Assembly: GCA_964437545.1 (NCBI GenBank)
Contig: CAYTHH010000001.1
Location: 118,036 to 152,377 of the forward strand
Origin: an uncultured Candidatus Saccharibacteria bacterium
GTDB lineage: Bacteria > Patescibacteriota > Minisyncoccia > Minisyncoccales > GWA2-46-15
DNA length: 34,342 nucleotides
Direction: 5' to 3'
In this document: piece after piece, positions 2,607 to 31,098 of the stretch
Numbering within the stretch: the stretch's first letter is position 1
Layout of the letters: the number at the start of each line of letters is the position of its first letter
Notes under the pieces: model-generated
The model's database searches: none
Told to the model about the DNA's origin: nothing
Seen by the model: the letters and a program-made list of their open reading frames with translations, nothing else
Made by a program: the position numbers and the translations under genes

Positions 2607-3298
2607 AGCAGAGTTGGCTGAACCGCAAGCTTCTTTTTAAATTCCTTCCAATTCATCTCCTGAGCGGTTGCCAGTTTGCAAATTTCTCTGAATTGGCAGA
2701 ATTGGCATTCCTTGTCCCTAGGATAAGCGGTCAATCTCTTTGGAATAACATTGGCATCAATCTTAGTCCTTAATGATTCCAAATCTCTTAAAAGCTTGTT
2801 AGCTAGAATCCGATCATAAAGAACAATAAATTCTTTTAATTCCTGAGTATCTTTATTTACATAGAGCAGAATTCCTTTCTTGATTCCGAAGAAGTGCAGA
2901 TAAAGCTGGAGCTGAAAAACATTGTCTGGTTTTGGCTGAGATAAGTTCTTGAATAAAAAGCTGTTTATGCTTTTAATATCTAAGACATAAAGCTCGTTTT
3001 CCCAGCTTAAAATCGCATCAGCCCGTCCTGAAATAATTTTCTGAGCTGGAATACTTATCTCTGAAGACCTAACAATTCCTAAGCTGAAAAGCGTGTTTAA
3101 GATAAGGCGGTGAATATAGTCGCCATGGTCAAACATTCTTAAGATTCTGGCCTCCATTTCTTTTTTAGGAGCATTCTTAAATTTAAAAAAAATTGACCGG
3201 GGACACTTGCCACCGTCAGTAATATAAAAGCGGGTTCTGGCTCTTTCTTTTGATCTTTCCCGGTCTAGATAGAACTTGTCAATTAATTCTTTAAGCAT
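2603..3298 (-). CDS. Solo Cas4-like PD-(D/E)XK nuclease with Fe-S cluster cysteines
   Basis: N-terminal GKCPR, GDYIH, ISGRADA, VLDIKS, QLQLY and C-terminal CQFCQFREIC; likely start ATG 3298 (MLKELID). Confidence 0.8.
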   Translation of the reverse strand: MLKELIDKFYLDRERSKERARTRFYITDGGKCPRSIFFKFKNAPKKEMEARILRMFDHGDYIHRLILNTLFSLGIVRSSEISIPAQKIISGRADAILSWENELYVLDIKSINSFLFKNLSQPKPDNVFQLQLYLHFFGIKKGILLYVNKDTQELKEFIVLYDRILANKLLRDLESLRTKIDANVIPKRLTAYPRDKECQFCQFREICKLATAQEMNWKEFKKKLAVQPTLL

Positions 3299-3317
3299 AA
3301 GAACATTTAAAAAATGG

Positions 3318-3452
3318 AGCAGTAATGTTTTCAAAGCAGCTTTCGGAGCCTCGCCAGTATGGTTCCCATTTTTAACGGGATGGCGAGGCGAGAACGCAGA
3401 CCATAAAATCTCGCTGGGATTTTAATGGTTGGTGCTTTGAAACTTTACTGCT
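3318..3452. mobile_element. 135-bp multi-stem element with ~20-bp terminal inverted repeats (MITE-like or structured RNA)
   Basis: AGCAGTAATGTTTTCAAAGCA ... TGCTTTGAAACTTTACTGCT; inner hairpins 3348-3389 and 3400-3429. Confidence 0.6.
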
Positions 3453-3463
3453 AAATAAAAGAA

Positions 3464-3531
3464 AATATAAAAGCGGGTTCTGGCTCTTTCTTTTGATCTT
3501 TCCCGGTCTAGATCATTAATTCTTTAAGCAT
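3464..3531 (-). repeat. Duplicated, frameshifted copy of the 5' end of the cas4-like gene
   Basis: 3464-3513 identical to 3221-3270 (50 bp); 3515-3531 identical to 3282-3298; net 10-bp deletion between. Confidence 0.92.
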
Positions 3532-3537
3532 TTAGCT

Positions 3538-3714
3538 TTAAGGAACGGGCAAATAGATTTTAAGAACAATTAAAAGACCGGCTAGAATGAAAACAGCAAT
3601 AATGGCGCTAATGCCAAATTCGTTGTCGCCGCAATGACCGCCCATTTTACAAAACAAGAAACCTAAAAATAAGCAGACAAAGAAGCCGATGATGACAAAA
3701 ATGGGACCAAACAT
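3538..3714 (-). CDS. Small two-TM membrane protein (58 aa), not in ORF track
   Basis: MFGPIFVIIGFFVCLFLGFLFCKMGGHCGDNEFGISAIIAVFILAGLLIVLKIYLPVP*; fills the gap downstream of rpsI. Confidence 0.65.
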   Translation of the reverse strand: MFGPIFVIIGFFVCLFLGFLFCKMGGHCGDNEFGISAIIAVFILAGLLIVLKIYLPVP

Positions 3715-3720
3715 AATTAT

Positions 3721-3830
3721 TACTACGAAATACGAATTTTTACTAATATACTAATTTACGAAGTACGAATTTACAATTTCGGCTACGGATAAATTATTTG
3801 TATATTCGTACTGATTCATAATTGGTAGAA
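3721..3830. repeat. TACGAAT/TACTAAT heptamer palindromic element (inverted relative to the 6031 copy)
   Basis: 3724-3774 resembles the reverse complement of 6046-6094. Confidence 0.7.
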
Positions 3831-3831
3831 A

Positions 3832-5054: not shown

Positions 5055-5114
5055 TTTACTCCTTTAAAAAATTTAATATGTCTGTAGATTCTTTCAGAAT
5101 CTACATTTAAAAAT

Positions 5115-6020: not shown

Positions 6021-6030
6021 TTTTTTATTT

Positions 6031-6094
6031 CCTACTAATTACGAATAAATTCGTACTTTGTAGATTAGTATATTAATAAAAATTAGTAATTCGT
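6031..6094. repeat. TACGAAT/TACTAAT heptamer palindromic element
   Basis: Ends CCTACTAATTACGAAT ... ATTAGTAATTCGT shared with the 7644 and 22929 copies. Confidence 0.8.
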
Positions 6095-7246: not shown

Positions 7247-7636
7247 TTATGTTGCCTGGGCAGCCGGCTTTCTTCCTGAACCGACAGTCTTTCTGACATT
7301 TCCCCTAACTGTCCTGGTATTGGTTTTAGTCCGCTGACCCCTAACTGGAAGCTTTTTGGCATGTCTAATACCTCGCCAAGCGCCAATATCTTTTAATCTT
7401 TTAATATTAAGCATGATTTGACGCCTCAAATCTCCTTCGGTCTTGTGCTTTTTCTCAATTATTTCTTTAAGGCGGCTGACTTCCTCAGCAGTCAGGTCGC
7501 CAGCATTCTTATTAAAAGGAATGTTAGTCAGTTTTAAAATTTTGTGACTCAAAGACCGACCAATACCATAAATGTAGGTTAAAGAAACATCGATATGTTT
7601 TTTTTCTGGAATGTTGATTCCGACAATACGTGGCAT
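7247..7636 (-). CDS. rpsM: 30S ribosomal protein S13
   Basis: LTYIYGIG, LPVRGQRTKTN. Confidence 0.98.
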   Translation of the reverse strand: MPRIVGINIPEKKHIDVSLTYIYGIGRSLSHKILKLTNIPFNKNAGDLTAEEVSRLKEIIEKKHKTEGDLRRQIMLNIKRLKDIGAWRGIRHAKKLPVRGQRTKTNTRTVRGNVRKTVGSGRKPAAQAT

Positions 7637-7643
7637 AAATTAT

Positions 7644-7750
7644 CCTAGCAATTACGAATCAATACGAATATACCAATAGATTTTTTAGGTAAATTCGTGT
7701 AAATTCATGTTTTGTAGATTAGTATATTCGTAAAAAATTAGTAATTCGTA
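7644..7750. repeat. TACGAAT/TACTAAT heptamer palindromic element
   Basis: Shares 23 identical bp (CGAATATACCAATAGATTTTTTA) with 22949-22971 and TTTGTAGATTAGTATATT with 6057-6074. Confidence 0.8.
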
Positions 7751-7754
7751 AAAG

Positions 7755-7868
7755 TTATCCTTGTCTCATTTTATGTTTTGGATTGGTGCAAATTAAATAG
7801 ACACGCCCTTTTCTGCGGACAATCTTACAATGATTGCATATTTTCTTTACCGACGGTCTAATTTTCAT
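7755..7868 (-). CDS. rpmJ: 50S ribosomal protein L36 (zinc-ribbon type), not in ORF track
   Basis: [37 protein letters not shown]. Confidence 0.97.
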
Positions 7869-9714: not shown

Positions 9715-11511
9715 TTATGAATTCTCCAATGCCCCTCGGATCCTTCTGATCCCTTTGGCAACTGCTTCTTCTTTAATAATTTTAAATATTCCTAATTCAG
9801 AAGTATTACTGACATGAGGGCCGCCGCAAACTTCTTTACTAAAATCGCCGATCTTGTAAACTTTAACTTTATCTGCATATTTATCTCTAAAGAAAGCAAC
9901 GGCGCCACTTGCCAAGGCCGCATCTTTATCCATTATTTCAAACGAAACTTCGAGATTTTGTTTTATCTTTGCATTAATCAAATCTTCAACTTCTTTTAAT
10001 TGATCTGGTGTCAATTTCTGATCATGGGAAAAATCAAATCTTAATCTCTCGGCAGTAATATTACTACCCTCTTGTCTTACTTGAGAATTTAAAACTTGTC
10101 TTAAAGCCGCATGTAAAAGATGGGTAGCGGTATGAAGCTTAACCACTTCATGGCTTTGATCTGCCAAACCACCTTTAAACATGCCTGCGGCTGCCTGACG
10201 GGAAATGTCCTGATGTTTTTTCTGCTCTTGCTCAAACTCCTCAAGATTAAACTCCTGTCCCCTTTCTTTAACAATTTCTAAAATCATTTCCAAAGGAAAA
10301 CCAAAGCTTTCGTAAATGTAAAATGCAGTTTTACCGTCAAGTTTTTCAACTTTGTCAATCTCTTTAAAACCGTTTCTTAAAGCTTTGTCAAAACGGTCAG
10401 CTTCTTGCTGGAAAGCAATTAAGATTTCCGCTTCCTTGTCTTTAAGGTCCGGAAAAATATCATCATAGGTTTTACAAACCATTCCAACTAAAGATTTTAG
10501 ATAATAACTTTCTATTAAGTTAAGTCTTCTGGCAAAAAGCATAGCTCTTCTCAATAGTCTTCTTAAAATATATCCCTGGGTTTTGTTTGAAGGCTGAATC
10601 CCCTCTCTGGCGATCATGACCGCCGCCCTGAAATGATCAGCCATAATTCTCATCGCCCGAGAAGTATTTTTATCGCTTAAATAATCTTTTTTAGATAAAG
10701 ATTGGATTATTTCAATCAAGGGCCAAAGCAGGTCAATCTGGAAAATATCAGGATTATTATTAACAGCCGCCACTAATCTTTCTAAGCCGCCGCCGAAGTC
10801 AACATTCTTTTGCAGCAATTCTTTGAAGGAGCCGTCAACTTGTTTTTGATACTGGATAAAAACTGAGTTGCCTATTTCCAGAAACCTGCCGCAATCGCAG
10901 TTAGGATGACAGCTAGAACCATATTTCAAATCATGAGCAACCTGCTTGAATTCATAAAAGATTTCAGAATCCAGACCGCCGATGTCTCCTACGGGCATTG
11001 ACTCAGGCGGACCAGATATTGACCACCAATTCTTTTCAACTCCATAAGAAAAAATTCTTTCTGAAGGAATCCCTAAATTTTTCCAAATAGTCAGAGATTC
11101 TTCATCTTGAGAAATACCAGTTGCCTTATCTCCTTTAAAAACTGAAACCCAAAGCTTGTCTTTTGAAAGACCCAGTTCCTGTGTCAAAAACTCATAAATC
11201 CAAGGCAATTGTTCTGCTTTAAAATAGTCTCCCAAAGACCAATTTCCTAACATTTCAAAAAAGGTAGTGTGACGGTTATCACCAACTTCTTCAATATCCT
11301 GTAATCTTAAAGACGGCTGGGAATTAACAAGTTTTTTGAATCCGGAAGAGTGTGGTTTACCTGAAAAATAAGGTATCAAAGGCTGCATACCACAAGAAGT
11401 AAATAATGTGGTCGGGTCTTCAGTCAACACCAAGGGCGCTGGAGTAATTACCTTATGTCCTCTCTTCTTAAAAAATTCAAAATATTTCTGTCGTACTTCT
11501 CTGGAAGTCAT
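9715..11511 (-). CDS. alaS: Alanine--tRNA ligase, short form lacking C-Ala domain
   Basis: HTTFFEMLGNWS.GDYFK, DFGGGLERL, editing HTATHLL and EVCGGPH; 598 aa. Confidence 0.96.
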   Translation of the reverse strand: MTSREVRQKYFEFFKKRGHKVITPAPLVLTEDPTTLFTSCGMQPLIPYFSGKPHSSGFKKLVNSQPSLRLQDIEEVGDNRHTTFFEMLGNWSLGDYFKAEQLPWIYEFLTQELGLSKDKLWVSVFKGDKATGISQDEESLTIWKNLGIPSERIFSYGVEKNWWSISGPPESMPVGDIGGLDSEIFYEFKQVAHDLKYGSSCHPNCDCGRFLEIGNSVFIQYQKQVDGSFKELLQKNVDFGGGLERLVAAVNNNPDIFQIDLLWPLIEIIQSLSKKDYLSDKNTSRAMRIMADHFRAAVMIAREGIQPSNKTQGYILRRLLRRAMLFARRLNLIESYYLKSLVGMVCKTYDDIFPDLKDKEAEILIAFQQEADRFDKALRNGFKEIDKVEKLDGKTAFYIYESFGFPLEMILEIVKERGQEFNLEEFEQEQKKHQDISRQAAAGMFKGGLADQSHEVVKLHTATHLLHAALRQVLNSQVRQEGSNITAERLRFDFSHDQKLTPDQLKEVEDLINAKIKQNLEVSFEIMDKDAALASGAVAFFRDKYADKVKVYKIGDFSKEVCGGPHVSNTSELGIFKIIKEEAVAKGIRRIRGALENS

Positions 11512-11512
11512 A

Positions 11513-21665: not shown

Positions 21666-21674
21666 AGTTTTAAA

Positions 21675-22061: not shown

Positions 22062-22081
22062 ATATTTAGATTATATTATCA

Positions 22082-22338: not shown

Positions 22339-22359
22339 AAAATTATTATTAGGATTATG

Positions 22360-22920
22360 TTATTTAGACTTAATGGGAAATCCTAGTAATTTTAATAATT
22401 TAATCCCCTCTTCTTTGTTTCGGGCTGTAGTTGAAATAACTATTTCCAAACCAAAGATCCTTTTAACGCTTTCGGGAGATACTTCGGGAAAAATAGTCTG
22501 TTCCTTGACGCCGATAGTTAGGTTTCCAGTCTTATCAATGCTGCTTTCTTTAAGCCCTTGAAAGTCTTTGGACCTTGGCAGAGCTATCCAAACCAGCTTA
22601 TCAATAAAATCGTGCATTTTCTTCTTCCTTAGGGTAACTTTAGCGCCAATAGCAATCCCCTTTCTTAATTTAAAGGAAGCAATGGATTTCTTAGAATAGG
22701 TTAGAACTGCTTTCTGTCCGCAAATCATAGTCAAATCTTCTAAAACTATTTGAGAAATCTTTTTCACTTCGTCGCCAGAAGTCCCGGCTACTTGCTTTCC
22801 AAAACCAGTATTAACTACTACCTTGCTGATCATTGGTACCGCCATATCATTCTTATAGCCAAAAGCTGCTTTCATTCCGGGAATTACTTCTTTTTTATAT
22901 CTTTCATTAAAACGCAACAT
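22360..22920 (-). CDS. rplE: 50S ribosomal protein L5
   Basis: KVVVNTG.G, SIASFKLR, KVTLR, LPR..DF.G. Confidence 0.98.
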   Translation of the reverse strand: MLRFNERYKKEVIPGMKAAFGYKNDMAVPMISKVVVNTGFGKQVAGTSGDEVKKISQIVLEDLTMICGQKAVLTYSKKSIASFKLRKGIAIGAKVTLRKKKMHDFIDKLVWIALPRSKDFQGLKESSIDKTGNLTIGVKEQTIFPEVSPESVKRIFGLEIVISTTARNKEEGIKLLKLLGFPIKSK

Positions 22921-22928
22921 GTTTTTTA

Positions 22929-23007
22929 CCTACTAATTACGAATAGGTCGAATATACCAATAGATTTTTTATACAGATTCGTATATTCGTATAAATTAGT
23001 AATTCGT
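22929..23007. repeat. TACGAAT/TACTAAT heptamer palindromic element
   Basis: CCTACTAATTACGAAT ... ATTAGTAATTCGTA ends. Confidence 0.8.
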
Positions 23008-23011
23008 AGAA

Positions 23012-23317
23012 TCATATTTCTTGATGACATTTTTTACAAAACCTAAACTTATCCTTGCCAACAACCTTGTAGCCAATTCTGGCTGGCTGGCCGCATTTCG
23101 GACAAATCAGCTTGGTATTGGCAACGTTAATTGGTATTGAAATTTGAACAGTTTCCCCTTTTTCTCCGCTTTTCTTGGGCTTAACGTGTTTTTTCCTTAA
23201 GTTAAGACCTTCAACTAGAATCTTATTTTCCTTTGGGAATACTTTCAAAACCTTGCCCTTTTTAAGCCTATCTTTCCCAGAAACAACAATAACCGAATCG
23301 CCTTTTTTTATTTTCAT
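23012..23317 (-). CDS. rplX: 50S ribosomal protein L24
   Basis: MKIKKGDSV.V.SGKD, VEGLN, CPKC; start ATG 23317. Confidence 0.97.
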   Translation of the reverse strand: MKIKKGDSVIVVSGKDRLKKGKVLKVFPKENKILVEGLNLRKKHVKPKKSGEKGETVQISIPINVANTKLICPKCGQPARIGYKVVGKDKFRFCKKCHQEI

Positions 23318-23398
23318 AATTTTGAACAAAGTGAGAAATTATGGAATCAAGATTTTATTGAGTAAAACGAAGTAAAATTTATTTTCATAAATCGTGAA

Positions 23399-23770
23399 TT
23401 AAACTATTTCTTTGGCCATGGTAGCAATCTTGTCATAACCTCTTTCTTTCAACTCTCTGGGAATTGGGCCAAAAATTCGACCGCCTTTTGGGTCTTTGGT
23501 TGTTCCGTCCAGAATCACCGCAGCATTTTCGTCAAAACGAATATAGCTGCCATTTTTTCGACGGAAAGATTTCTTTTGCCTAACAATTACTGCTTTAATA
23601 ATATCATGCTTTTTAACAATCCTTCTAGGTTCAGCTTCCTTAACCACAGCCACAATGGTATCGCCAATCTGCCCGGTCCTTCTTCGTGAGCCACCTCTAA
23701 CCTGAATACATTCAATGATTTTAGCACCGCTGTTATCAGCTACTTTTAAATTGGTTAGCAATTGGATCAT
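23399..23770 (-). CDS. rplN: 50S ribosomal protein L14
   Basis: [23 protein letters not shown]; start ATG 23770. Confidence 0.98.
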
Positions 23771-23777
23771 AATTGAA

Positions 23778-24029
23778 TCATAGTTTGGCTTTAGGCGTTT
23801 TTTGAAAAACAACTCTCCATTTTTTGTTTTTAGAAAGAGGCCGGCATTCTTCAATCATAACCGTTTCTCCAGTCTTAGAAAGATTTTTTTCGTCATGAGC
23901 CTGATACCTTTTAAAAACCTTGTACCTGGCTCTGTATTTAGGATAAAACCTTAAGCTTTCAACCTTAACTACGACTGTCTTAGACATCTTATCGGAAACG
24001 ACAATTCCAGTTAATTTTCGCTTTGGCAT
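23778..24029 (-). CDS. rpsQ: 30S ribosomal protein S17
   Basis: [29 protein letters not shown]; start ATG 24029. Confidence 0.97.
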
Positions 24030-24030
24030 A

Positions 24031-24167
24031 CCAGGTAGTAGAAACTCGACTAGTAGCAAAGCTTCTTTGCTATCTAAATCGATGTTTCCTTGGTTAATTG
24101 TATTAATTTACTCTTTTGTGCCAGATAATTCTTATCTTAAAGAAGCGGTCGAGTTTTCACTACCTGG
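24031..24167. mobile_element. CCAGGTAG-ended inverted-repeat element at the rpsQ start codon, flanked by CATA direct repeats
   Basis: 20-bp TIRs (18/20); CATA at 24027-24030 and 24168-24171; 24027-24052 identical to 11509-11534. Confidence 0.8.
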
Positions 24168-24171
24168 CATA

Positions 24172-24372
24172 CTATTGTTTTTTCTGTTTTAAAATAGTAG
24201 CAATTCTAGCAACGTCCTTTTTTAATTCACTAATTTCACGGACATTCTTTAACTTACCCGAAGCAGACAAAAACCGCAAGGAGGTCAGCTTTTCTTTAAG
24301 CTGGTTTAAGCTAACTTTCAGAGTTTCTGGTGAAAGTTGCTGCCATTCTTTTATCTTTAAAGTTGCTTTCAT
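24172..24372 (-). CDS. rpmC: 50S ribosomal protein L29
   Basis: LRF...SGKLKN, KKDVARIATI; synteny. Confidence 0.95.
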   Translation of the reverse strand: MKATLKIKEWQQLSPETLKVSLNQLKEKLTSLRFLSASGKLKNVREISELKKDVARIATILKQKKQ

Positions 24373-24405
24373 GTTAATACTTCATTTAATTTAGACCGAG
24401 TTTAC

Positions 24406-24813
24406 TCAATCTTTTTTCACAAATTTAGTTTTAATCGGCAGTTTATCACCGGCAGTTTTTAAAGCTTTCCTGGCTGCTTCTTCGGTAATGCCATCTATTT
24501 CAAAGATAAGACGGCCTGGCCTAATCGGAAAAACATAACGGTCAACGGCACCCTTACCGCCTCCTAACGGCACTTCTTGTCCCTTGCTAGTCACTGGTTT
24601 ATCTGGAAAAATCCTGATCCACATTTTGCCGCCTTTCTTAAAATATCTTAAAATAGCTCTACGGGCTGCCTCAATTTGGCGGCTGGTAATCCAGGATGTG
24701 CCCATACTCTTTAATCCAAAAGCGCCAAAATTAAGCTCGGTGGCCCTATTTTCAATGCCCCGAGACCTACCCTTGTGCCACTTCCTATGTTTTACTTTTT
24801 TTGGTAGAAGCAT
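24406..24813 (-). CDS. rplP: 50S ribosomal protein L16
   Basis: MLLPKKVKHRK, RQIEAAR, WIRIFPDKP, KLPIKT. Confidence 0.98.
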   Translation of the reverse strand: MLLPKKVKHRKWHKGRSRGIENRATELNFGAFGLKSMGTSWITSRQIEAARRAILRYFKKGGKMWIRIFPDKPVTSKGQEVPLGGGKGAVDRYVFPIRPGRLIFEIDGITEEAARKALKTAGDKLPIKTKFVKKD

Positions 24814-24829
24814 GATTGTTGAACGTTAG

Positions 24830-24947
24830 TGAGATAATCACCCCGCCCTCTATGCCTGTTGAATTTTAGTTAGCAGATAAATTTTCGCTATTATGTCTGG
24901 TTATCCGTTTAACCGTAATTCCACGGGCTTAGAGGGCGGGGTTCTCA
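24830..24947. repeat. GC-rich long inverted-repeat element between rpsC and rplP
   Basis: ACCCCGCCCTCTA (24840-24852) / TAGAGGGCGGGGT (24930-24942), stem extends ~13 bp inward imperfectly. Confidence 0.8.
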
Positions 24948-24949
24948 TT

Positions 24950-25612
24950 TTATTCGAACTTATCGCCTTTATAAAGCCAAACCTTAATGCCAATCGTGCC
25001 ATAAGTGCAGTAAGCTGAAGTATGGGCATAATCAATATCAGCTCTCAAGGTTTGTCTGGGCAACCGGCCCTTTTTTAACCATTCTCTCCTGGCAATTTCA
25101 TTACCATCGAGTCGGCCCGCTATCTCAATCTTAGCTCCCTTAATATCTTTACTCTCCATGACGTTTTCTAAAGAACGTTTAATAACTCTCCTAAAAGGAA
25201 CTCTTTTAACGACCTGCTTGGCAATAGCTTGACCAATTAAAGCAGCTGAGGTCCAAGGATTTTTAATTTCCTGAATTTCAATTCTGAGCTCAGGAACTTT
25301 AACACCATGCCTCTTCTTGCGTAAAGCCATGAGTTTAGATTTTAATTCTTTTTTCAGTTCTTCAGCACCGCTGCCGCCTCGGCCAATAATTAATCCTGGT
25401 CTGGCACTTTTAATAATAATATTTAGCTTGGCTGGAAATCTCTCAATCTTAATTGAATCAACAGCCGCTTCTTCGAGTTTCTTTAAAAGAAACTTCCTTA
25501 TAAAAAAGTCTTGTTCTAACTGCTTGGGAAATTTCTTACCGTAAAAACCACGGTTTTCCCAATCGTCCATTCTCTTTATTCTTAAAACTTTAGGATGAGC
25601 TTTATGTGTCAT
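24950..25612 (-). CDS. rpsC: 30S ribosomal protein S3
   Basis: RPGLIIGRGG, GRLDGNEIARRE, TLRADIDY, GIKVWLY. Confidence 0.98.
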   Translation of the reverse strand: MTHKAHPKVLRIKRMDDWENRGFYGKKFPKQLEQDFFIRKFLLKKLEEAAVDSIKIERFPAKLNIIIKSARPGLIIGRGGSGAEELKKELKSKLMALRKKRHGVKVPELRIEIQEIKNPWTSAALIGQAIAKQVVKRVPFRRVIKRSLENVMESKDIKGAKIEIAGRLDGNEIARREWLKKGRLPRQTLRADIDYAHTSAYCTYGTIGIKVWLYKGDKFE

Positions 25613-25618
25613 GTTTTC

Positions 25619-26119
25619 TTAAACTTTTCTTCTAAAAACCTTTTTGAATCCTGGAACTGATTTGGGTTTCAGGACTTCTGCTCCCTGCTTTATTTTTGGC
25701 TTGGATTTTTTTACCTTTTCTTGAATCCCTTTCTTGGCTTCTGCCTTTTTAATTTTCTTAAAATTAGCTTTGCTAACGCCTCTTTTAGATTCTAAAACAA
25801 TTGTCAAATGTGAAGTTTTCTTTTGGATTGGAAACGCTTGTCCTCTAGCTCTGGGTCGCCACCTTTTTAACTTGCGTCCTTCATCAACTAAAACTTTAGC
25901 CAGGTACAAATCTTTTTCATCAAGCTGGAAATTATTCCTAGCATTGGCTAAAGCTGACTCCAAAAGTTTTAAAAATGGCCTAGCTCCTTTTTTAACCAAA
26001 AAGCTGAGTTTAGTTTTAGCTGTTAAAGCATCTTGGCTCCGAACCAAATTAGCCACTAATCTTAATTTACGTGGCGCAATCCTTAAATTTTTTAATTTGG
26101 CGATAACTTGTTGTTGCAC
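25619..26119 (-). CDS. rplV: 50S ribosomal protein L22 with Lys-rich C-extension
   Basis: RIAPRKLRLVA, SALANA, RARGQA; probable GTG start 26119. Confidence 0.95.
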   Translation of the reverse strand: MQQQVIAKLKNLRIAPRKLRLVANLVRSQDALTAKTKLSFLVKKGARPFLKLLESALANARNNFQLDEKDLYLAKVLVDEGRKLKRWRPRARGQAFPIQKKTSHLTIVLESKRGVSKANFKKIKKAEAKKGIQEKVKKSKPKIKQGAEVLKPKSVPGFKKVFRRKV

Positions 26120-26177
26120 GTTTTTAATTATCTTACAATAAATAAATGGAAAAAATACATTGAAAGACAAAGAAACT

Positions 26178-26516
26178 TCATTTCTTTGTTTCTGCAGCTT
26201 TAACAGCGCCGACCTTGGCGGCTTCATTCTGAGCTGACTTTGATTCTAATTCCCGTTGCATTTTACCTCCGTGTCTGGAAAATTTTGTTGTTAAAGAAAA
26301 TTCGCCTAAATAATGGCCGACCATGTCTTCGGTAATATAAACTGGAATAAATTCCTTGCCATTATGGACTCCAAAGGTAAAACCAATCATTTCTGGAGCA
26401 ATCTGGCTTCGCCTCGCCCAAGTCTTAATAATATCCTTTGATCCGGATTTTAAGTTTTTAAGCTTAGCAACTAATTTTTCATCCACATAAGGACCTTTTT
26501 TTGTACTTCTAGACAT
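26178..26516 (-). CDS. rpsS: 30S ribosomal protein S19
   Basis: [25 protein letters not shown]. Confidence 0.98.
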
Positions 26517-26565
26517 AAATTTTTCTACTTTATGATTTTGGCTACGAATAAATTATTGGTAAACA

Positions 26566-27342
26566 TTATTTTTTCTTTTTCTTTTTTCTTCTTTGGATAA
26601 TAAGCTTATCAGTCCATTTTTGTCTTCTGGTTTTAACTCCTTTGGCATGTTTTCCCCAAGCAGTCTTAGCATAAGGCATACCGATTGGAGCCTTGCCTTC
26701 GCCGCCGCCATGAGGATGATCAACCGGATTCATGGCCGAACCCCTGACTGTTGGCCTAATTCCCTTACGCCGATTAGTTCCAGCCTTGCCAACATTCTTA
26801 AACATATGTTCAGAATAGGAAACAGTTCCAATGGTAGCAAAACAATCTTCAAAAACTTTCCTGACTTCACTTGAAGGCATCACTAGTTGCACCATGCCAC
26901 TATCATGAGCTAAGACTTTAGCGCTCGATCCTGCCGACCTAACCATTCTGCCGCCCCGATTGGGCTCAAGTTCAATATTAAAAACCATGGTACCAACCGG
27001 AATATTCTTTAATCTGGCTCGATTGCCGGAAATAATTTCAGTTTTGTCTTGAATAATTACGCTGTCTCCTGCCTTTAATCCTTGAGCGGCAATCACATAT
27101 CTTCTTTCTTTATCTTGGTATTCTAAAAGAGCAATATGAGCGGTTCTATAAGGATCATACTCAATAGAAACAACTTTAGCTGGCATATCTATCTTTTTTT
27201 GGCCAAAATCCATAATCCGGTACATTCTTTTCACCCCGCCCCCCTGATGTCTAACCGTAATCCGGCCTCGGCTGCGGCCAGCCTTGGCTTTAATAAATTT
27301 CAATAACTTTTTTTCCGGTTTTGCTTTGCTTAGCTTAGTCAT
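26566..27342 (-). CDS. rplB: 50S ribosomal protein L2 (N-terminally shortened)
   Basis: GRITVRHQGGG, EYDP.R, RPTVRGSAMNPVDHPHGGGEG. Confidence 0.98.
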   Translation of the reverse strand: MTKLSKAKPEKKLLKFIKAKAGRSRGRITVRHQGGGVKRMYRIMDFGQKKIDMPAKVVSIEYDPYRTAHIALLEYQDKERRYVIAAQGLKAGDSVIIQDKTEIISGNRARLKNIPVGTMVFNIELEPNRGGRMVRSAGSSAKVLAHDSGMVQLVMPSSEVRKVFEDCFATIGTVSYSEHMFKNVGKAGTNRRKGIRPTVRGSAMNPVDHPHGGGEGKAPIGMPYAKTAWGKHAKGVKTRRQKWTDKLIIQRRKKKKKK

Positions 27343-27347
27343 TTGTA

Positions 27348-27770
27348 TTAAACACTAAAGGCCTCGATCCGCTGACCTGGCGCTAGCTTAATAATCGCCT
27401 TTTTATAGCCCTTTTTCCAGCCCTGGCTTTTGCCTGACCTCTTGGTTTTACCGCTGATATTAATAATCCTGACGCTCATCACTTTAACTTTATAAAGGCT
27501 TTCGATGGCTTTTTTAACTTCTGTCTTATTGGCTCTGGGAAAAACCTTGAAAACATATTGGCTATCAGCAATCAGCTGAGTTGCTTTTTCGGTTACATGG
27601 GGGGAAAGTAAGATTGGAAAAGCTGGAAACGCCTTTGAAGATAAAACAGCCGAAGTCTTTTTTTTAGATTTTTCCTTTTTAACAACCTCTGCCTTAACTT
27701 CTTTTTTTACCAAGGGTTTAGGTAAAGGAGCTTTTTTGGTTTTTTTTCTTTTTAAAAAATCAAATACCAT
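27348..27770 (-). CDS. rplW: 50S ribosomal protein L23 with N-extension
   Basis: PHVTEKA, ANKTEVKKAIE, YKKAIIKL. Confidence 0.96.
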   Translation of the reverse strand: MVFDFLKRKKTKKAPLPKPLVKKEVKAEVVKKEKSKKKTSAVLSSKAFPAFPILLSPHVTEKATQLIADSQYVFKVFPRANKTEVKKAIESLYKVKVMSVRIINISGKTKRSGKSQGWKKGYKKAIIKLAPGQRIEAFSV

Positions 27771-27822
27771 ATTTATCTTAAATCATTTAAGGGTAGAAAA
27801 TTCATTGTGAAAGAAAAGATTT

Positions 27823-28500
27823 TCATTCTTCTTTTAAAAATGTGTTCTTTTTTATCAAGGCATTTTTTAATTCTGATATGGCCTTAATTGTTTCCTTGGT
27901 CATGATTAAGTATTGAAATGAAAGCACTTGCAAGGTATTAATATTCCTTAACTCGATAATTTCTAAACCCGGAATATTTCTTGAAGCCAAAACAACATTT
28001 TTATCAAGCTTAGCTAAAACCAATAAAGCCTTAGCTTTGTTAAAACCATTGATTTTTGATCTTAGAGTATTAAGAATTTCAACCATTTGCTTTGTCTTGG
28101 GAGCAGTCAGCTCAAGAGATTCTAAAACGATTAACTCTTTAGCTTTAGCTTTTTCAGACAAGGCTACCAATAAACTTTTTCTGGCCATTTTTTTAGAAAT
28201 CCCCTGCTTCCAAATCTTGTCATTTCTAGGACCAAAAGTTGTTCCGCCGCCTCTCCATAAGGGGGATCTGTTTGAAGAATGACGAGCCCGTCCCGTACCC
28301 TTTTGCCTCCAAGGCTTTTTGCCGCCGCCAGAAATTTCACCCCTAGTCTTGGTATGGGCTGCTCCTTGGCGCTGGTTTGCCAATTGTGATCTGGTTATCT
28401 GCCAAATTAAATCAGGATTAGAATCTAGCCCAAAAACATCCTTGGGTAACAAGATTTCCCCCGCCTTCTCTCCTGATTGATTATGAACCAAATATTTCAT
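27823..28500 (-). CDS. rplD: 50S ribosomal protein L4
   Basis: TKTRGEISGGGKKPWRQKGTGRAR. Confidence 0.98.
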   Translation of the reverse strand: MKYLVHNQSGEKAGEILLPKDVFGLDSNPDLIWQITRSQLANQRQGAAHTKTRGEISGGGKKPWRQKGTGRARHSSNRSPLWRGGGTTFGPRNDKIWKQGISKKMARKSLLVALSEKAKAKELIVLESLELTAPKTKQMVEILNTLRSKINGFNKAKALLVLAKLDKNVVLASRNIPGLEIIELRNINTLQVLSFQYLIMTKETIKAISELKNALIKKNTFLKEE

Positions 28501-28516
28501 ATCATAAATATTTCAA

Positions 28517-28668
28517 CTAGATACTCCATGTTTTGTATCTAGTATCTTGTATCTAGTATATAAACGACATATCAGAATCGTATACTAAATACAAAATACT
28601 AAATACCAGATACTAATCAGTCTTAATTTCAATAATAAAATTGATTGATCGGGATTTGATTAGTATTA
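28517..28668. repeat. GTATCTA/TAAATAC heptamer-array hairpin plus a second hairpin
   Basis: TGTATCTAGTATCTTGTATCTAGTATA / TATACTAAATACAAAATACTAAATAC; then ATACTAATCA / TGATTAGTAT. Confidence 0.75.
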
Positions 28669-28693
28669 TAAATTAGAAATTGGTCATTTTATT

Positions 28694-29293
28694 TTATCCG
28701 GTTATCTCTATCAAAGTGCCTCTTATCCCTGGAATAGCTCCTTTAACTGCCATCAAGTTATTATTCTTATCAATCTTTATAATTTTCAAATTTTTAACTG
28801 TGACTCTTTCGGCTCCCATCCGACCCGACATTTTTCTGCCCTTAATTAGTCTGCCTAAACCGCTCTGGCCAGTTGACCCCAATGTTCTCAGCTCATGTTT
28901 GGTGCCATGAGTTGTGGATAATCTGCCCTTAAAACCCCAAAGTTTGACTGCGCCAGCATAGCCCTTACCCTTAGAAATACCAGCTACTTTAATCTTATCT
29001 CCTTCAACAAAATCGGGCTCAAAGGCATCGCCAACTTTGTAATTCGCCAGCTCCTTTTCTAAAATCTTAATTTCTTTCAAAACCCTGTATTCTTTGCCTT
29101 TCATTGTTTTTTTTATCTTGCTGGGCTTATCAATCTTACCAAAACCAATCTGAATGGCAGTGTAACCGTCCCTGGGTTTCGTTTTTAACTGAAGAATCTG
29201 ATAAGAACCTGTTTCAATTAAAGTTACAGGAATCATTTTCCCGTCTTCAAAAATCTGGGTCATAGTTACTTTTCTACCAACTGTGAATTTCAT
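28694..29293 (-). CDS. rplC: 50S ribosomal protein L3
   Basis: MTQIF, PVTLI, DGYTAIQIG, SKGKG, VKGAIPG; start ATG 29293. Confidence 0.97.
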   Translation of the reverse strand: MKFTVGRKVTMTQIFEDGKMIPVTLIETGSYQILQLKTKPRDGYTAIQIGFGKIDKPSKIKKTMKGKEYRVLKEIKILEKELANYKVGDAFEPDFVEGDKIKVAGISKGKGYAGAVKLWGFKGRLSTTHGTKHELRTLGSTGQSGLGRLIKGRKMSGRMGAERVTVKNLKIIKIDKNNNLMAVKGAIPGIRGTLIEITG

Positions 29294-29417
29294 GCTCAGT
29301 AACAGAAAATCGGGCATAGCCCGATTCTCAGGTTCGGCTATTTCAAATAATTTATCTTTTTAAGATTGTATTTACCACCATATGGATTTTACAACTAAAA
29401 TTGAATAAAGTAAAGAC

Positions 29418-29768
29418 CTACATTTTGATCTCAATATCCACTCCGGTCGGTAAATTAAGGTTGGTCAGAGAATCAATGACTTTCTGGCCTGGTTCTAAAA
29501 TATCGATTAATCTCTTATGAATCCTCATTTCAAACTGTTCACGGCTGTCCTTATAGACAAAAGAGGAACGATTGACAGTATATTTCCTAATTTCAGTCGG
29601 TAAAGGAATCGGTCCCCTGATTTTAACGTTAAACCTCATAGCTGTCTCCACGATCTGGCGACAGCTGGCATCTAAAACCTTGTGATCATAAGCACGAAGC
29701 CTAATTCTAAGCTTAGCAGTTTCAATCTGGTTTTCTCTTTTTTCTGTAGCCTTAGTTTTTGTAACCAT
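29418..29768 (-). CDS. rpsJ: 30S ribosomal protein S10
   Basis: [28 protein letters not shown]. Confidence 0.98.
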
Positions 29769-29813
29769 TCTAAAAAGGTAGTATCTGGAAAATTATTTCT
29801 TTATTAATTAGAA

Positions 29814-31013
29814 TCATTTAATCACCTTGGCAATGACACCAGCGCCAACAGTTTTGCCGCCTTCTCTAATAGCAAATCTTTGTTTTTCTTCCATGGCTAC
29901 AGGCACAATTAATTTGACAACAACGTTAACCGTATCGCCGGGCATAACCATTTCCGTGCCTTCTGGTAAAGTTACTTCGCCGGTAATATCGGTAGTCTTA
30001 AAGTAAAATTGAGGTTTATAGCCCTTGAAAAACGGTGTGTGACGACCGCCCTCTTCTTTAGTCAAAACATAAACTTCACCTTCGAATTCAGTATGCGGAG
30101 TAATGGATCCTGGCGCTGCCAAAACTTGACCACGTTCAACCTCTTCTTTCTTTAGCCCTCTTAAAAGAACGCCGACATTGTCTCCGGCAATGCCCTCATC
30201 AAGAATCTTTTGGAACATTTCAACACTGACAACAGTGGTCTTGACTGTCGGCTTAAGGCCAATTAGTTCAACTTCGTCATTGCCCTTAACCTTACCACGA
30301 TCAATCCTGCCGGTAGCTACTGTGCCACGTCCTTCTATTGTAAAAACATCTTCAATTGACATTAAGAAGGGTTTGTCAGTTTCTCTAACCGGCTCGGGAA
30401 TAGCCGTATCTAAAGCTTTAATAAGATCAAAAACACCACTGACCCATGGATCATCAGCCGAAGTAGCTTCTAGTGCCTTTAAAGCTGAACCTTTGATAAT
30501 GGGAATAGTATCTCCGGGATAACCATATTTTTTCAAGAGCTCTCTGACTTCTGATTCAACCAAATCAATAATTTCTGGATCGTCAACCAAATCAGTTTTA
30601 TTTAAAAACACTACTAAAGCTGGCAAACCAACCTGTCTGGCTAAAAGAATATGCTCTTTTGTCTGAGGCATAGGCCCGTCAGGAGCTGATACTACTAAAA
30701 TAGCACCGTCCATTTGGGCTGCGCCCGTAATCATATTCTTAATATAGTCAGAATGACCAGGGCAATCAATGTGGGCATAGTGACGGATATCTGACTCATA
30801 TTCAACGTGGCAAACATTAATCGTTACCCCACGAGCCTTTTCTTCGGGAGCTGAATCAATTTCACCAATACCCTTATTGGTCGCTTTGTAACCCTTAAGA
30901 TTCATGACCTTAAGAATTGCAGCGGTTAAGGTTGTTTTCCCATGGTCGACGTGGCCGATGGTACCGACATTAACATGAGGCTTTGACCTCTCAAACTTTT
31001 CTTTCTCTGCCAT
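29814..31013 (-). CDS. tuf: Elongation factor Tu
   Basis: [27 protein letters not shown]. Confidence 0.99.
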
Positions 31014-31019
31014 AGTATG

Positions 31020-31098
31020 TGTATTTAGTATTTAGTAGCTAGTGTTTAGTATTCAGTATTCGTTAATACCAGATACAAGATACTAGATACCAGATACA
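31020..31098. repeat. GTATTTA/TAGATAC heptamer-array hairpin in the tuf leader (inverted relative to the 28517 copy)
   Basis: GTATTTAGTATTTAGTAGCTAGTGTTTAGTATTCAGTATT / AATACCAGATACAAGATACTAGATACCAGATAC. Confidence 0.75.

Follow-up and report, generated by a model that had tools for sequence, protein, structure and literature searches.

Hairpin-forming, probably mobile repeats at the gene junctions of a streamlined bacterial genome, with one family on native start codons

Results

Inverted-repeat inserts occupy twelve gene junctions

The window, by which we mean the whole stretch of 34,342 nucleotides analysed, carries ribosomal protein genes together with rpoA, secY, adk, map, alaS, tuf, a cas4-like gene whose product has PD-(D/E)XK and Cas4 Pfam matches, and a PaaX_M/Cas2-like gene. 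The following features lie at their junctions (positions are those of the window; z, folding energy against shuffled sequence).

3221-3298, minus strand: start region of the cas4-like gene, downstream functional copy; ATG 3298-3296
3318-3452, minus strand: family H palindrome, 135 nt, -55.4 kcal/mol, z -8.1, within insert 3299-3463
3464-3531, minus strand: start region of the cas4-like gene, upstream dead copy; has an ATG, lacks 10 nt, stops after 7 codons
3709-3830, minus strand: family A foldback, built on the words TACGAAT and TACTAAT and their complements; lies between a small membrane ORF and the rpsI stop (3832), z -2.5
6022-6094, minus strand: family A copy between rpsD and rpoA; weak hairpin, z -0.8
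7643-7753, minus strand: family A copy between rpmJ and rpsM; z -5.3, 9-of-10 direct repeat 7752-7761 / 7637-7646
11513-11670, minus strand: family B miniature inverted-repeat element (MITE) at the alaS start; z -4.65, TATG copies 11671-11674 and 11509-11512, alaS ATG 11511-11509
16883-16930, minus strand: family C hairpin downstream of the PaaX_M/Cas2-like gene
16934-17476: PaaX_M/Cas2-like gene (Pfam PaaX_M, E 1.7e-23)
17480-17515, minus strand: family C hairpin upstream of the PaaX_M/Cas2-like gene
18273-18364, minus strand: family G foldback between secY and adk; 9-10-nt words containing CTGATT, z -3.6
22929-23010, minus strand: family A copy between rplX and rplE; z -2.2, empty site with a 10-nt spacer in relative G003
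24031-24167, minus strand: family B MITE at the rpsQ start; z -4.64, TATG copies 24168-24171 and 24027-24030, rpsQ ATG 24029-24027
24814-24949, minus strand: family E element between rpsC and rplP; 103-nt GC-rich palindrome 24840-24942 and 26-nt tail 24814-24839, z -8.0
28510-28680, minus strand: family D foldback between rplC and rplD; 7-nt words GTATCTN and their complement, z -7.4
31028-31097, minus strand: family D foldback in the tuf 5' leader; z -5.0, ends 6 nt before the ATG

An earlier note on this DNA had listed inverted-repeat inserts at 12 junctions (3318, 3721, 6031, 7644, 11513, 16818, 18300, 22929, 24031, 24830, 28517 and 31020), and all 12 indeed hold non-coding inserts of about 40-190 nt with inverted-repeat structure between called genes. 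When each stretch was compared with 200 dinucleotide shuffles, folding exceeded the shuffles in 10 of the 11 validly folded elements (the junction elements other than the family C hairpins). The z scores were strongest at 3318, 24830 and 28517, intermediate at 7644, 31020, 11513 and 24031, and weaker at 18300, 3721 and 22929; at 6031 folding was not above chance. In the family C hairpins (at the 16818 junction and at 17490), the stems are visible in the sequence. The inserts had also been said to fall into recurring families, and this proved right: when the 12 junction elements and the second family C hairpin at 17490 were used as blastn queries against the 524-kb genome, 10 of the 13 gave 2-8 further matches each, and the three that are single-copy in this genome (3318, 18300 and 24830) have relatives in other genomes. 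The inserts comprise at least seven unrelated families (A, B, C, D, E, G and H). An assembly artefact was ruled out, since contigs from four other public runs bridge the elements without differences (for example 22307-24359, 26707-29677 and 23820-25059) and members of these families are present in many further assemblies.

We compared the junction gaps of this genome (G000) with those of seven relatives of the same genus. Filled junctions differ from genome to genome, the ribosomal operon of G004 is almost insert-free, and from species to species one and the same junction can be occupied by unrelated elements. Aligning the nucleotide sequence with that of G003, the closest relative, revealed empty sites there at rpsC-rplP, rpmC-rpsQ and rplX-rplE. 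Conservation at the same junctions would have meant ancient leaders; because orthologous junctions in the seven relatives carry different inserts or none, the inserts are lineage-specific insertions, which supports the earlier description of them as non-autonomous, recurring palindromic families.

Family B duplicates the start codon of its target

Family B is a textbook miniature inverted-repeat element. Its unit of about 120-155 nt has near-invariant 20-nt terminal inverted repeats and a variable core, and is flanked by a 4-bp target duplication, NATG and mostly TATG, which includes the start codon. The 4-bp flanks agree on both sides although their first base varies (TATG, AATG, CATG, GATG, TATT and TTTA were found), and since this variable base matches on both sides, the target duplication is a true one. 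The TATG duplications first noticed at alaS and rpsQ are thus real; the accompanying idea of hairpin-ended (IS200/IS605-like) elements does not suit family B, given its terminal inverted repeats and genuine target duplication. At rpsQ, the exact repeat at the duplicated start is 8 nt, and the junction is empty in all seven same-genus genomes (gaps of -8 to 10). The alaS N-terminus, MTSRE, is common to G001, where the element is absent. Among 57 family B copies, the upstream ATG is retained in 49; the frame that opens from it spans 8-40 codons, and in none of the copies does it run into the gene.

Each of this genome's six full copies directly adjoins a true start, and five of them lie in intergenic regions of 79-238 nt in which other positions were available. 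Two of the six genes are alaS (by Pfam) and rpsQ (by tblastn), and three others, with N-termini recognised by eye, are presumably trmD, rpmB and murA. Family B is present in four of the eight genus genomes, this one included: six copies in G006 adjoin the starts of ORFs of 127-453 aa, and G001 and G002 have one copy each. Orientation to the gene is uniform in this genome (6/6) and in G006 (6/6). Tandem copies, with TATG between each, are found 5' of one gene.

In public collections, family B is found across many candidate-phyla-radiation lineages. We defined full-length copies as at least 100 nt long and start copies as those abutting an ATG that opens an ORF of at least 70 aa. In the public genome scan, 37 of 47 full-length entries were start copies, compared with 2 of 15 short forms; in the metagenome scan, among the matches listed, the counts were 38 of 47 and 4 of 19, and the two sets of counts are not independent because the collections overlap and many copies are orthologous. 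The matched flank pairs of the 38 listed metagenome copies were TATG/TATG in 24 and AATG/AATG in five. Among the matches listed, 9-10 of the 47 full-length entries in each collection were off starts. Some of those in the genome set are pairing artefacts or tandem upstream members; among the remainder are TTTA, TAAA and CAAA sites and a recurrent one, with target duplication TATT, that lies 4 codons short of the rpsD stop. Short forms (62-97 nt) keep the terminal repeats and have TATA and other flanks, and a few have TATG flanks at non-starts. As a null, the TATG sites of this genome that coincide with a called start or are wholly non-coding number 606, and 175 of them (29%) are called starts, gene starts having been called by the longest ORF, a crude rule. 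Enrichment at start codons, which the earlier note had proposed to look for genome-wide, is therefore strong for family B in the genome, the genus and the public collections. The broader claim that the elements insert at initiation regions agrees with where family B is located, but only two of the 12 window junctions carry a start-codon element; likewise, the start codon is literally rebuilt in family B through the NATG duplication, and plausibly so at the cas4-like gene and rplD. Taken together, these results indicate that the inserts are in all probability non-autonomous hairpin-forming mobile repeats which colonise the scarce non-coding DNA of a streamlined 0.5-Mb genome and its relatives, with full-length family B located on native starts.

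Integration of family B duplicates the ATG such that the downstream copy stays joined to the gene, while the upstream copy keeps the native leader and opens a dead-end frame into the element. The host gene would presumably still be expressed, either because the perfect stem loops the element out and so brings the native leader next to the new ATG, or because the stem is opened as the short upstream frame is translated. The responsible enzyme would make a 4-bp staggered cut at (T)AT(G/A), and the near-exclusive location of full-length copies at starts could result from integration preference, from survival (copies elsewhere being lost or shrunk to stubs of 65-90 nt), or from both. It is quite possible that retention alone is at work, with an enzyme that cuts any (T)AT(G/A) and full-length copies that persist at the starts of indispensable genes, where imprecise loss would kill the gene or the core would be needed for expression, and that are elsewhere deleted or reduced to terminal-repeat stubs. 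The short forms, which are mostly off starts, are consistent with this, and there is no extended motif beyond NATG at family B sites; moreover, T occupies base -1 in 65% of the sites compared with 175 of 422 called ATG starts (41%), which suits a sequence preference of the enzyme better than recognition of starts. However, insertions recur in tandem at the same start, and among the listed copies away from long ORFs, the only NATG-flanked ones stand before ORFs of 16, 34 and 64 aa, possibly small genes, yet this genome alone has 431 wholly non-coding TATG sites. The uniform orientation also differs from what a palindromic cut-site preference alone predicts. The safe-haven strategy proposed earlier is thus overstated, being one of two readings that these data do not separate.

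Complex palindromes of families C, E and H

These three families consist of complex palindromes and are as polymorphic among the relatives as the other families. The insert at 3299-3463, with its family H palindrome, splits the 5' end of the cas4-like gene. Relatives of family H occur in four of 11 family genomes, this one included, and comparison by eye shows that the outer stem covaries and the inner hairpin is conserved. The duplication of about 78 bp reported at this gene was recovered as 68-78 bp in two blocks of 100% identity each (3221-3270 with 3464-3513, and 3282-3298 with 3515-3531). At the empty site in G001, the stop of a small upstream ORF directly adjoins the cas4-like ATG, and the tblastn match in G001 begins at residue 13 of the longer, TTG-started cas4-like ORF. 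It is plausible that the start of this gene was rebuilt by the duplication. The PaaX_M/Cas2-like gene, previously suspected to be a gene-carrying insert, lies between adk and map and is bracketed by the two family C hairpins; it is missing in all five relatives that cover the junction (G001, G002, G004, G005 and G007), in which adk and map are adjacent. For family E, the 26-nt tail ends at the rplP ATG. The rpsC-rplP junction is empty in G003, G004 and G005 (3-6 nt); G006 has the same element with its tail there, and a second copy with the same tail adjoins rpsS.

Word-built foldbacks of families A, D and G

The foldbacks of these three families are made of 7-10-nt words and show the same degree of polymorphism. 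The rpsD-rpoA gap is 79 nt in this genome, 79 nt in G001 with a different element, and 20 nt in G002. At rpmJ-rpsM, G002 has a 5-nt empty spacer and G001 a family D element; the 9-of-10 direct repeat that flanks the insert, absent from the earlier list, was reached by 4 of 500 shuffles. The secY-adk junction holds a family G element in G004 also, a family D element in G001, and 0-30 nt in G002 and G007. The rplC-rplD gap is 193 nt compared with -1 to 36 nt in six relatives. Here the 10-bp duplication noted at rplD was confirmed as a direct repeat that straddles the start (28506-28515 and 28490-28499), and the rplD N-terminus is unlike the version conserved in the six relatives; given both, rebuilding of the start on insertion is plausible. 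The tuf leader foldback sits between a genus-conserved promoter-like site and the ATG. In contrast, the 13-bp duplication assigned to rplX did not hold up: the downstream gene is rplE, the best match of 9 in 13 was reached by 266 of 500 shuffles, and no exact repeat of at least 6 nt touches the rplE start. Clear ends and duplications were found in these three families at only one of seven tested junctions. Since operon spacers are 1-10 nt, proximity of the families other than B to an ATG is largely unavoidable, so no targeting is shown for them.

The arms of families A and D resemble the STRR heptanucleotide repeats of heterocystous cyanobacteria, which are intergenic arrays of tandem 7-nt words; unlike STRR, an array is joined here to its inverted complement as a foldback, which varies between congeneric species and lies in operon spacers. 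It is possible, though doubtful, that families A, D and G were never transposed but arose where they stand, as short seeds lengthened through slippage and inverted duplication, in which case the likeness between loci would stem from low complexity. In the arms, 7-10-nt words stand in tandem and their complements follow, ends are fuzzy, flank repeats are not above chance at six of the seven tested junctions, and one-armed half-elements exist at C3:35087, C3:35478, C1:31506 and C1:77834. Against growth in place, the word families recur at other junctions in other species (family D, for example, at rpmJ-rpsM and secY-adk in G001 and at rplC-rplD and fusA-tuf in this genome), family A copies are linked by blastn matches of 88-92% over 44-58 nt, and the rpmJ-rpsM copy has its 9-of-10 flanking repeat.

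Discussion

Bacterial MITEs, according to passages of PMC3184786, are short and non-coding, with terminal inverted repeats, target duplications, long stems, many dispersed copies, and filled and empty sites. Family B has all of the defining features named there, like the Correia elements of Neisseria and Nezha of cyanobacteria. It is unlike the known MITEs in that its 4-bp NATG duplication falls on native starts in about 80% of full-length copies and in one orientation. Literature searches found no MITE with a start-codon target duplication, and we know of none whose duplication coincides with native start codons; Correia elements duplicate TA. Neisseria REP2 and similar Borrelia repeats lie directly upstream of genes, and REP2 carries its own promoter, ribosome-binding site and ATG (described in part of PMC3184786). 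As far as that description goes, family B resembles them in being immediately upstream, fused to the translational start and furnished with internal stem-loops, and differs from REP2 in having neither a Shine-Dalgarno sequence nor a convincing promoter. Because of its terminal inverted repeats and target duplication, the ATG comes from the target and is not its own as in REP2.

These repeats, as there described, are a precedent for domestication, in which the elements, family B above all, would be portable RNA-level modules kept by the host, with mobility as their origin only; the stem might gate the start codon, or the element might supply an internal promoter, or a site at which processing leaves an mRNA with a short leader. 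We consider this rather unlikely. Both 20-nt arms are near-perfectly conserved across distant lineages, including a fixed G-U plus A-C mismatch, and the cores are unalignable, which would also fit selection for a host function. The same may be said of the uniform orientation, of the retention of full-length copies only at starts, and of a small GC-rich hairpin beside the gene-proximal arm, whose sequences differ yet remain complementary between subfamilies (by eye). However, in the copies of this genome no Shine-Dalgarno sequence lies between family B and the ATG, the single promoter-like match in the rpsQ copy is weak (9 of 12) and the alaS copy has none, and no Rfam family matches the elements. 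In addition, the closest relative, G003, manages without elements at the same genes, and the genes that carry them have no regulon-like theme.

No mobilising enzyme was found in this genome for the families in searches for DDE_Tnp_1, DDE_3, rve, DDE_5, OrfB_IS605 and resolvase; the only candidate, a RAYT-like Y1 transposase (Y1_Tnp, 36.4 bits against a cut-off of 23), has its own, different repeats. No parent insertion sequence with family B ends was found, no terminal-repeat pairs more than 320 nt apart were seen among 44 and 80 listed loci, and family B had no match in viral contigs. Four metagenome runs yielded no empty-site variants, and so give no indication that the elements are now moving in this population.

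It is improbable that the inserts are REP/REPIN populations of the proteobacterial kind, which RAYT-type Y1 transposases mobilise. As in those systems, extragenic hairpins of many families coexist with several RAYT paralogues per genome in the genus, and a 23-nt GC-rich palindrome whose tail contains GTAG stands in inverted copies on either side of the Y1_Tnp gene. Same-genus genomes have 0-7 paralogues, each of the 10 loci examined with its own flanking palindrome; one palindrome type also occurs between genes in this genome and 5' of alaS in G001, and family B arms contain GTAG. However, the flanking palindrome of this genome is found at only four places, all on contig C8, and matches no window family. 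Family B has a true target duplication, which Y1 (IS200/IS605-type) insertion is not known to make, and the foldbacks here are AT-rich word arrays rather than GC-rich palindromes of 20-40 nt. One gene in this genome would have to serve seven or more families, and G004 has seven paralogues yet hardly any inserts in its ribosomal operon. It is very improbable that the inserts are assembly artefacts, or old cis-regulatory leaders conserved in ribosomal protein operons. In favour are an Alpha_RBS match that overlaps the rpmJ-rpsM insert (7604-7706, 28.2 bits, E 0.0086) but is below the gathering score of 38, and a hairpin kept between rpsJ and rplC in five genus genomes, which is not among the listed inserts. 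Against these explanations, no Rfam match reaches the gathering score, orthologous junctions are empty or refilled, independent contigs bridge the elements, and many other assemblies contain the same families.

We return to mobile repeats as the preferred reading. In phage T4 genes 25 and 38, whose ribosome-binding sites are split by hairpins, a stable stem that separates the upstream initiation signals from the AUG is tolerated because it loops out, and by analogy loop-out of the family B stem may keep translation going. The T4 hairpins are single evolved sites and not mobile. Family B would be a mobile repeat that sits on start codons and duplicates the ATG, leaving its host gene with a start.

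Species-specific palindromic inserts in the ribosomal-protein operons

The str, S10, spc and alpha operons for ribosomal proteins lie in the window (34.3 kb, 37% G+C), nearly all of them on the minus strand, together with infA, alaS, mnmA, tpiA, map, adk and secY, and a cas4-like nuclease gene is found at the low end of the window. The genome that carries it (G000) comprises 524 kb in 15 contigs and is 95.7% complete; a crude gene call that takes the longest ORF gave 544 genes, 88.7% coding DNA and 345 intergenic stretches of at least 30 nt. At all 12 junctions for which the earlier note had listed small palindromic inserts, an insert with inverted-repeat structure was present. When folded against 200 shuffles, 10 of the 11 valid stretches gave z scores of -2.2 to -8.1, and eight of those ten were matched by at most one shuffle of 200; the fold of the rpsD/rpoA element was not better than chance (z -0.8, 200 shuffles). 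The claimed recurrence of the elements was also seen by blastn against the G000 genome, and they belong to the following unrelated families.

Palindromic insert families at the operon junctions (window coordinates)
Family A: 3709-3830, 6022-6094, 7643-7753 and 22929-23010, at least five loci elsewhere; words TACGAAT and TACTAAT with their complements
Family B: 11513-11670 and 24031-24167, four full and two partial copies elsewhere in G000; 20-nt terminal inverted repeats
Family C: palindrome of about 40 nt; five places, two of them bracketing a PaaX_M/Cas2-like gene
Family D: 28510-28680 and 31028-31097, five more loci, some one-armed; 7-nt words GTATCTN with their complement
Family E: 24814-24949; 103-nt GC-rich palindrome with a 26-nt tail
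Family G: 18273-18364; 9-10-nt words containing CTGATT
Family H: 3318-3452; structured palindrome of 135 nt

In an all-against-all comparison of the intergenic DNA of G000, 109 of the 345 stretches fell into 14 clusters, and thus dispersed repeats are a genome-wide trait of this genome. Since contigs of four other public runs span the elements, bridging them without differences, they are not assembly artefacts. Over 11300-31200, no joint in the contigs of these runs skipped exactly one element, a comparison in which rare variants would be lost in contigs; joints between 11536-11603 and 24148, considered as polymorphism, reflect other family B copies instead. Rfam leader models had no match on the inserts at the gathering score, and a search at E <=5 gave no better than chance-level matches on the elements. 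The best sub-threshold match was Alpha_RBS (28.2 bits compared to a gathering score of 38), at 7604-7706, where it overlaps the family A right arm and the rpsM start.

To compare the inserts with relatives, the syntenic region of seven same-genus genomes (G001-G007) was taken and every junction was measured. G004 has a compact operon with most junctions at 1-30 nt, which is the textbook expectation for ribosomal-protein operons, and the other genomes carry inserts of 70-175 nt at differing junctions. The rpmC/rpsQ gap is 142 nt in G000 compared to -8 to 10 nt in all seven relatives, the rplC/rplD gap is 193 nt compared to -1 to 36 nt in six of six relatives, and the rplX/rplE gap is 91 nt compared to 1-16 nt in five of seven. 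In nucleotide alignments, the closest relative, G003 (about 95% protein identity), has clean empty sites at rpsC/rplP, rpmC/rpsQ and rplX/rplE. Unrelated elements occupy one junction in different species, and one family occupies different junctions across species. The earlier note had read the inserts as mobile elements that rebuild the start, and had named two results that would speak against this, conservation of the inserts at orthologous junctions and copies without enrichment at starts; the inserts differ or are absent among relatives, copies of family B are enriched at starts, and both tests fail to refute the reading.

Family B duplicates a target that contains the start codon

Family B is a MITE-like element of 120-155 nt without transposase coding capacity, which stands at the alaS and rpsQ starts in the window. 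Its sole frame is a run-in of 8-40 codons (median 15) from an upstream ATG that never enters the gene. The arms, as we call its 20-nt terminal inverted repeats, differ from each other at two adjacent positions and are nearly invariant across lineages in all aligned copies, and the cores are unalignable between subfamilies. In many subfamilies, a small GC-rich hairpin lies beside the gene-proximal arm, with sequences that differ and are complementary by eye.

Read in the direction of the downstream gene, each of the six full copies in G000 closes with the right arm, followed by an optional T and then ATG. Two of the six downstream genes are alaS (by Pfam) and rpsQ (by tblastn), three others have N-termini recognised by eye that we take to be those of trmD, rpmB and murA, and the sixth copy precedes another gene. 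Five of the six full copies lie in intergenic regions of 79-238 nt, so tight space does not explain their exact abutment on the ATG. On the outside, the left and the right arm are flanked by identical tetranucleotides, the variable first base included. At the rpsQ site in G003, there is a single copy of this tetranucleotide, one base past the rpmC stop, and the ATG of the filled junction comes from the target. Taken together, the flanks of family B are a target-site duplication that contains the start codon.

No Shine-Dalgarno sequence was found between the element and the ATG; in the same genus, tuf and the compact junctions likewise have none. Promoter scans of family B were weak or negative. 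The upstream copy of the ATG is retained in 49 of 57 distinct start-associated copies. No motif beyond NATG was found at family B sites, and T is at -1 in 65% of them compared to 175 of 422 (41%) called ATG starts; only 175 of the 606 TATG sites of G000 that are called starts or wholly non-coding are called starts. Core k-mer sharing gave no orientation and is uninformative here because the cores are too divergent and partly palindromic; orientation is uniform within G000 by alignment and within G006 by the arm signature.

Family B is enriched at starts in many lineages

Four of the eight genus genomes, G000 included, have family B, with six full and two partial copies in G000, at least 10 copies in G006, and one copy each in G001 and G002, both at starts. 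Of the G006 copies, six stand directly at starts of ORFs of 127-453 aa and two are degenerate; a short one, flanked by TTTA, is found 17 nt upstream of a gene, and one with TATT flanks lies four codons before the rpsD stop, where its left arm re-creates the last two codons and the stop. This rpsD site, at the same distance and with the same flanks, is recurrent, being found on contig C49 of G006 (locus L059) and at loci L103, L162 and L207.

The collections were scanned with an exact degenerate 20-mer for the arms, which matched 44 stretches in a species-representative genome collection and 118 stretches in a metagenome collection (80 of them listed), and nothing in viral contigs. By their record titles, the genome-collection matches belong to many candidate-phyla-radiation groups, except for two MAGs with other labels. 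For entries of at least 100 nt, 37 of 47 in the genome collection abut an ATG that opens an ORF of at least 70 aa, and 38 of 47 in the metagenome collection are at such starts among the matches listed; the pairing rule (first right arm after each left arm) gave false long pairs at loci L082 (323 nt), L063 (220 nt) and L135 (320 nt) that are inside these denominators, which also include tandem entries. Forms shorter than 100 nt are at starts in two of 15 cases in the genome set and in four of 19 in the metagenome set, among the matches listed. In all of these counts, elements less than 20 nt from a locus end were skipped and identical sequences were counted once; the two collections have entries in common with each other and with the genus genomes, and orthologous copies are among them, so the counts are descriptive and not independent trials. 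The flank pairs of the 38 metagenome entries (among the matches listed) are TATG/TATG in 24 and AATG/AATG in five, and agreement at the variable first base speaks for a real duplication. Family B is enriched at starts; it integrates with a 4-bp duplication at NATG, and its full-length copies lie mostly on start codons.

Start duplications in the other families

The duplication that the earlier note had described at the cas4-like gene was found: the first 78 nt (ATG at 3298) recur at 3464-3531, where the upstream copy lacks 10 nt and is therefore out of frame, and a 165-nt insert with the family H palindrome separates the two start copies. In G001, the stop of a small upstream ORF directly abuts the cas4-like ATG. 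Relatives of family H are present in four of 11 family genomes, G000 included, and the outer stem covaries. A 10-nt repeat straddles the rplD start, as had been noted, and the first six residues of rplD in G000 differ from the motif conserved in six relatives. The duplication proposed at 'rplX' was not confirmed. At rpmJ/rpsM, the family A copy is flanked by a repeat with 9 of 10 positions matching, in which the rpmJ stop is included, and six other junctions tested had no flank repeat above chance.

In operon spacers of 1-10 nt, adjacency to a start is uninformative because any tolerated insert touches a stop and a start. In long intergenic regions, the placement varies: of three family A copies, two are no more than 6 nt away from the start, though 380-500 nt are free, and the distances between family D copies and the ATG are 6, 22 and about 100 nt. 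Members of the family E subfamily that has the 26-nt tail stop exactly at an ATG, namely that of rplP in G000 and G006 and that of rpsS in G006. Family E palindromes were also seen elsewhere in the order (loci L247, L250, L258, L260 and L249), with flanks that resemble 23S rRNA, 16S rRNA, RNase P RNA and tRNA by eye; these copies may be the small rRNA insertions reported for these phyla. The PaaX_M/Cas2-like gene (16934-17476) lies between adk and map, which are adjacent in five relatives, and is bracketed by two direct family C hairpins (16883-16930 and 17480-17515), so that the insert looks like a cassette. An apical palindrome, CACGATCGTG, is common to hairpins with unrelated stems at C4:42731 and C7:13857 (contigs of G000) and in the family C copies. 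Taken together, the observation in the earlier note was largely right, and its interpretation held at its boldest point for one family, family B, and was over-generalised to the others.

Further repeats and leaders

Other elements were observed in the region and its genome. A GC hairpin with a T-run lies between rpsJ and rplC (29318-29417 and orthologues) in G000, G002, G005, G006 and G007. This hairpin overlaps the ATG with which the longest ORF of rplC opens; the gene itself starts about 21 nt farther downstream. The hairpin may serve the genus as an attenuator or leader. Another hairpin, which covaries and is followed by the conserved motif ACAGACATATT, is placed exactly 28 nt upstream of starts at four loci; it occurs at 5055-5114 in the window, at C6:4082, C6:26054, C10:7075 and others, with copies arrayed in tandem close to the ends of contigs. 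Several ATGs are immediately preceded by a second module, which ends in GGAAACGTAAA. Ten consecutive intergenic regions at C2:1700-8181 have a repeat in common, which is found in 12 in all with C6 and C7. In the tuf leader (31100-31168 and orthologues), a promoter-like TTGAC(T/A)...TA(G/T)AAT is conserved in the genus, no Shine-Dalgarno sequence was found at tuf in any of seven genomes, and four genomes carry different inserts. The rplE/rpsN gap (22268-22359) is 92 nt compared to 1-44 nt in relatives and contains a tandem duplication of about 40 nt, not a palindrome.

Family B compared to known systems

Family B has every feature that defines a bacterial MITE (short length, terminal inverted repeats, target duplication, dispersed copies, filled and empty sites) except a known parent element. 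No long arm pair that could mark such a parent was found in the 44 genome and 80 metagenome loci among the matches listed, where the widest arm pairs are about 320 nt. Locus L084, with two 72-nt copies 2.9 kb apart, was considered as an autonomous element and rejected, as the copies precede paralogous gene pairs and no transposase is present.

One Y1 (IS200-like, RAYT-type) transposase gene was found in G000, outside the window at C8:22058-22774 (loci L041 and L042), bracketed by inverted copies of its own 23-nt GC-rich palindrome. This palindrome is found at only four places, all within 6 kb on C8, one of them inside a neighbouring large ORF. Same-genus genomes hold between 0 and 7 Y1 paralogues, and every one examined (10 loci) is flanked by a palindrome of its own. 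REPINs are defined by a RAYT gene flanked by a palindrome that is dispersed in the genome; in contrast, none of the window families matched the palindrome flanking the Y1 gene. The single-strand Y1 mechanism of REP/REPIN-RAYT systems is not known to make a target duplication, and IS200/IS605-derived elements have subterminal hairpins, a fixed tetranucleotide on the left only and a TnpA or TnpB partner. Unlike the latter, family B has its variable first base duplicated on both sides, and because it makes a duplication, it is neither a REPIN nor an IS200/IS605 derivative.

The REP2 repeats of Neisseria and the upstream repeats of Borrelia are described as joined directly to the starts of genes (PMC3184786). 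Family B is partly like these repeats, but its ATG is taken from the target, and it shows neither a Shine-Dalgarno sequence nor a convincing promoter; the REP2 type carries a promoter, ribosome-binding site and ATG of its own. Integrons have an integrase, conserved core sites and cassette arrays. The flanking genes here are syntenic housekeeping genes, and the only cassette-like case is the PaaX_M gene between family C hairpins. Literature searches that covered few subscription journals returned no start-codon-specific MITE, no such repeats in these phyla, no paper joining candidate-phyla-radiation terms with such repeats, and no occurrence of the terminal-repeat sequence.

Targeting or retention at start codons

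Family B would be moved by a transposase acting in trans that makes 4-bp staggered cuts with a (T)AT(G/A) preference. Pfam searches of G000, an incomplete genome, gave no DDE_Tnp_1, DDE_3, rve, DDE_5, OrfB_IS605 or resolvase; DDE_Tnp_1 and DDE_3 were searched in G000 only. Across the five genomes searched, rve was found in G003 only, resolvase in three (G006, G001 and G002), and DDE_5 and OrfB_IS605 in none. Each of the five, G000 included, has one tyrosine recombinase, presumably of the Xer type. After insertion, the native leader and the regenerated ATG would be at the two feet of the 20-bp stem, and initiation could continue with the stem looped out, for which phage T4 genes 25 and 38 are a precedent. 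Alternatively, the short upstream frame may be translated and the stem opened, followed by initiation.

On the boldest reading, which is possible but somewhat less likely than not, family B is a start-codon-specific mobile element of the candidate phyla radiation, for which NATG is read in start context or which is a portable initiation module. Under this joint reading, either the machinery that integrates the element recognises NATG in the context of a start, in one orientation, or the full-length form is a module made up of the upstream ATG, the short frame, the 20-bp stem and the regenerated ATG, on which, if true, dozens of housekeeping genes would depend. It is also quite possible, if somewhat short of probable, that the enzyme cuts TATR sites anywhere and that full-length copies survive only at starts. 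The short forms of family B and the preference for T at -1 favour this second reading; however, tandem re-insertion at one start favours targeting, as does the finding that, among the matches listed, the only NATG-flanked copies away from long ORFs precede ORFs of 16-64 aa. If the start-specific reading is true in either form, a selfish element has, in lineages as distant as phyla, made its niche at the start codons of genes that the cell cannot do without.

Implications

The inserts displace called gene starts (in G000, the longest-ORF calls were wrong for rpsQ, rplX, rplC and the cas4-like gene), and they also break assemblies. Selfish DNA is generally expected to find hardly any space in streamlined, host-dependent bacteria, and here the most conserved operons are full of species-specific hairpin inserts. 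The start codon is a site that is present at every gene and at which the cell cannot afford damage; a family B insertion would be survivable because the ATG is duplicated. For translation, the question is how the ribosome initiates 1 nt downstream of a 20-bp stem when Shine-Dalgarno sequences are mostly absent at these genes. If integration is truly directed to starts, family B would choose its target in a way that is new for transposable elements, and it might serve as a tool for gene-start tagging. If the pattern is instead due to retention, family B would be a clean natural example of a selfish element that is protected by holding an essential site hostage.
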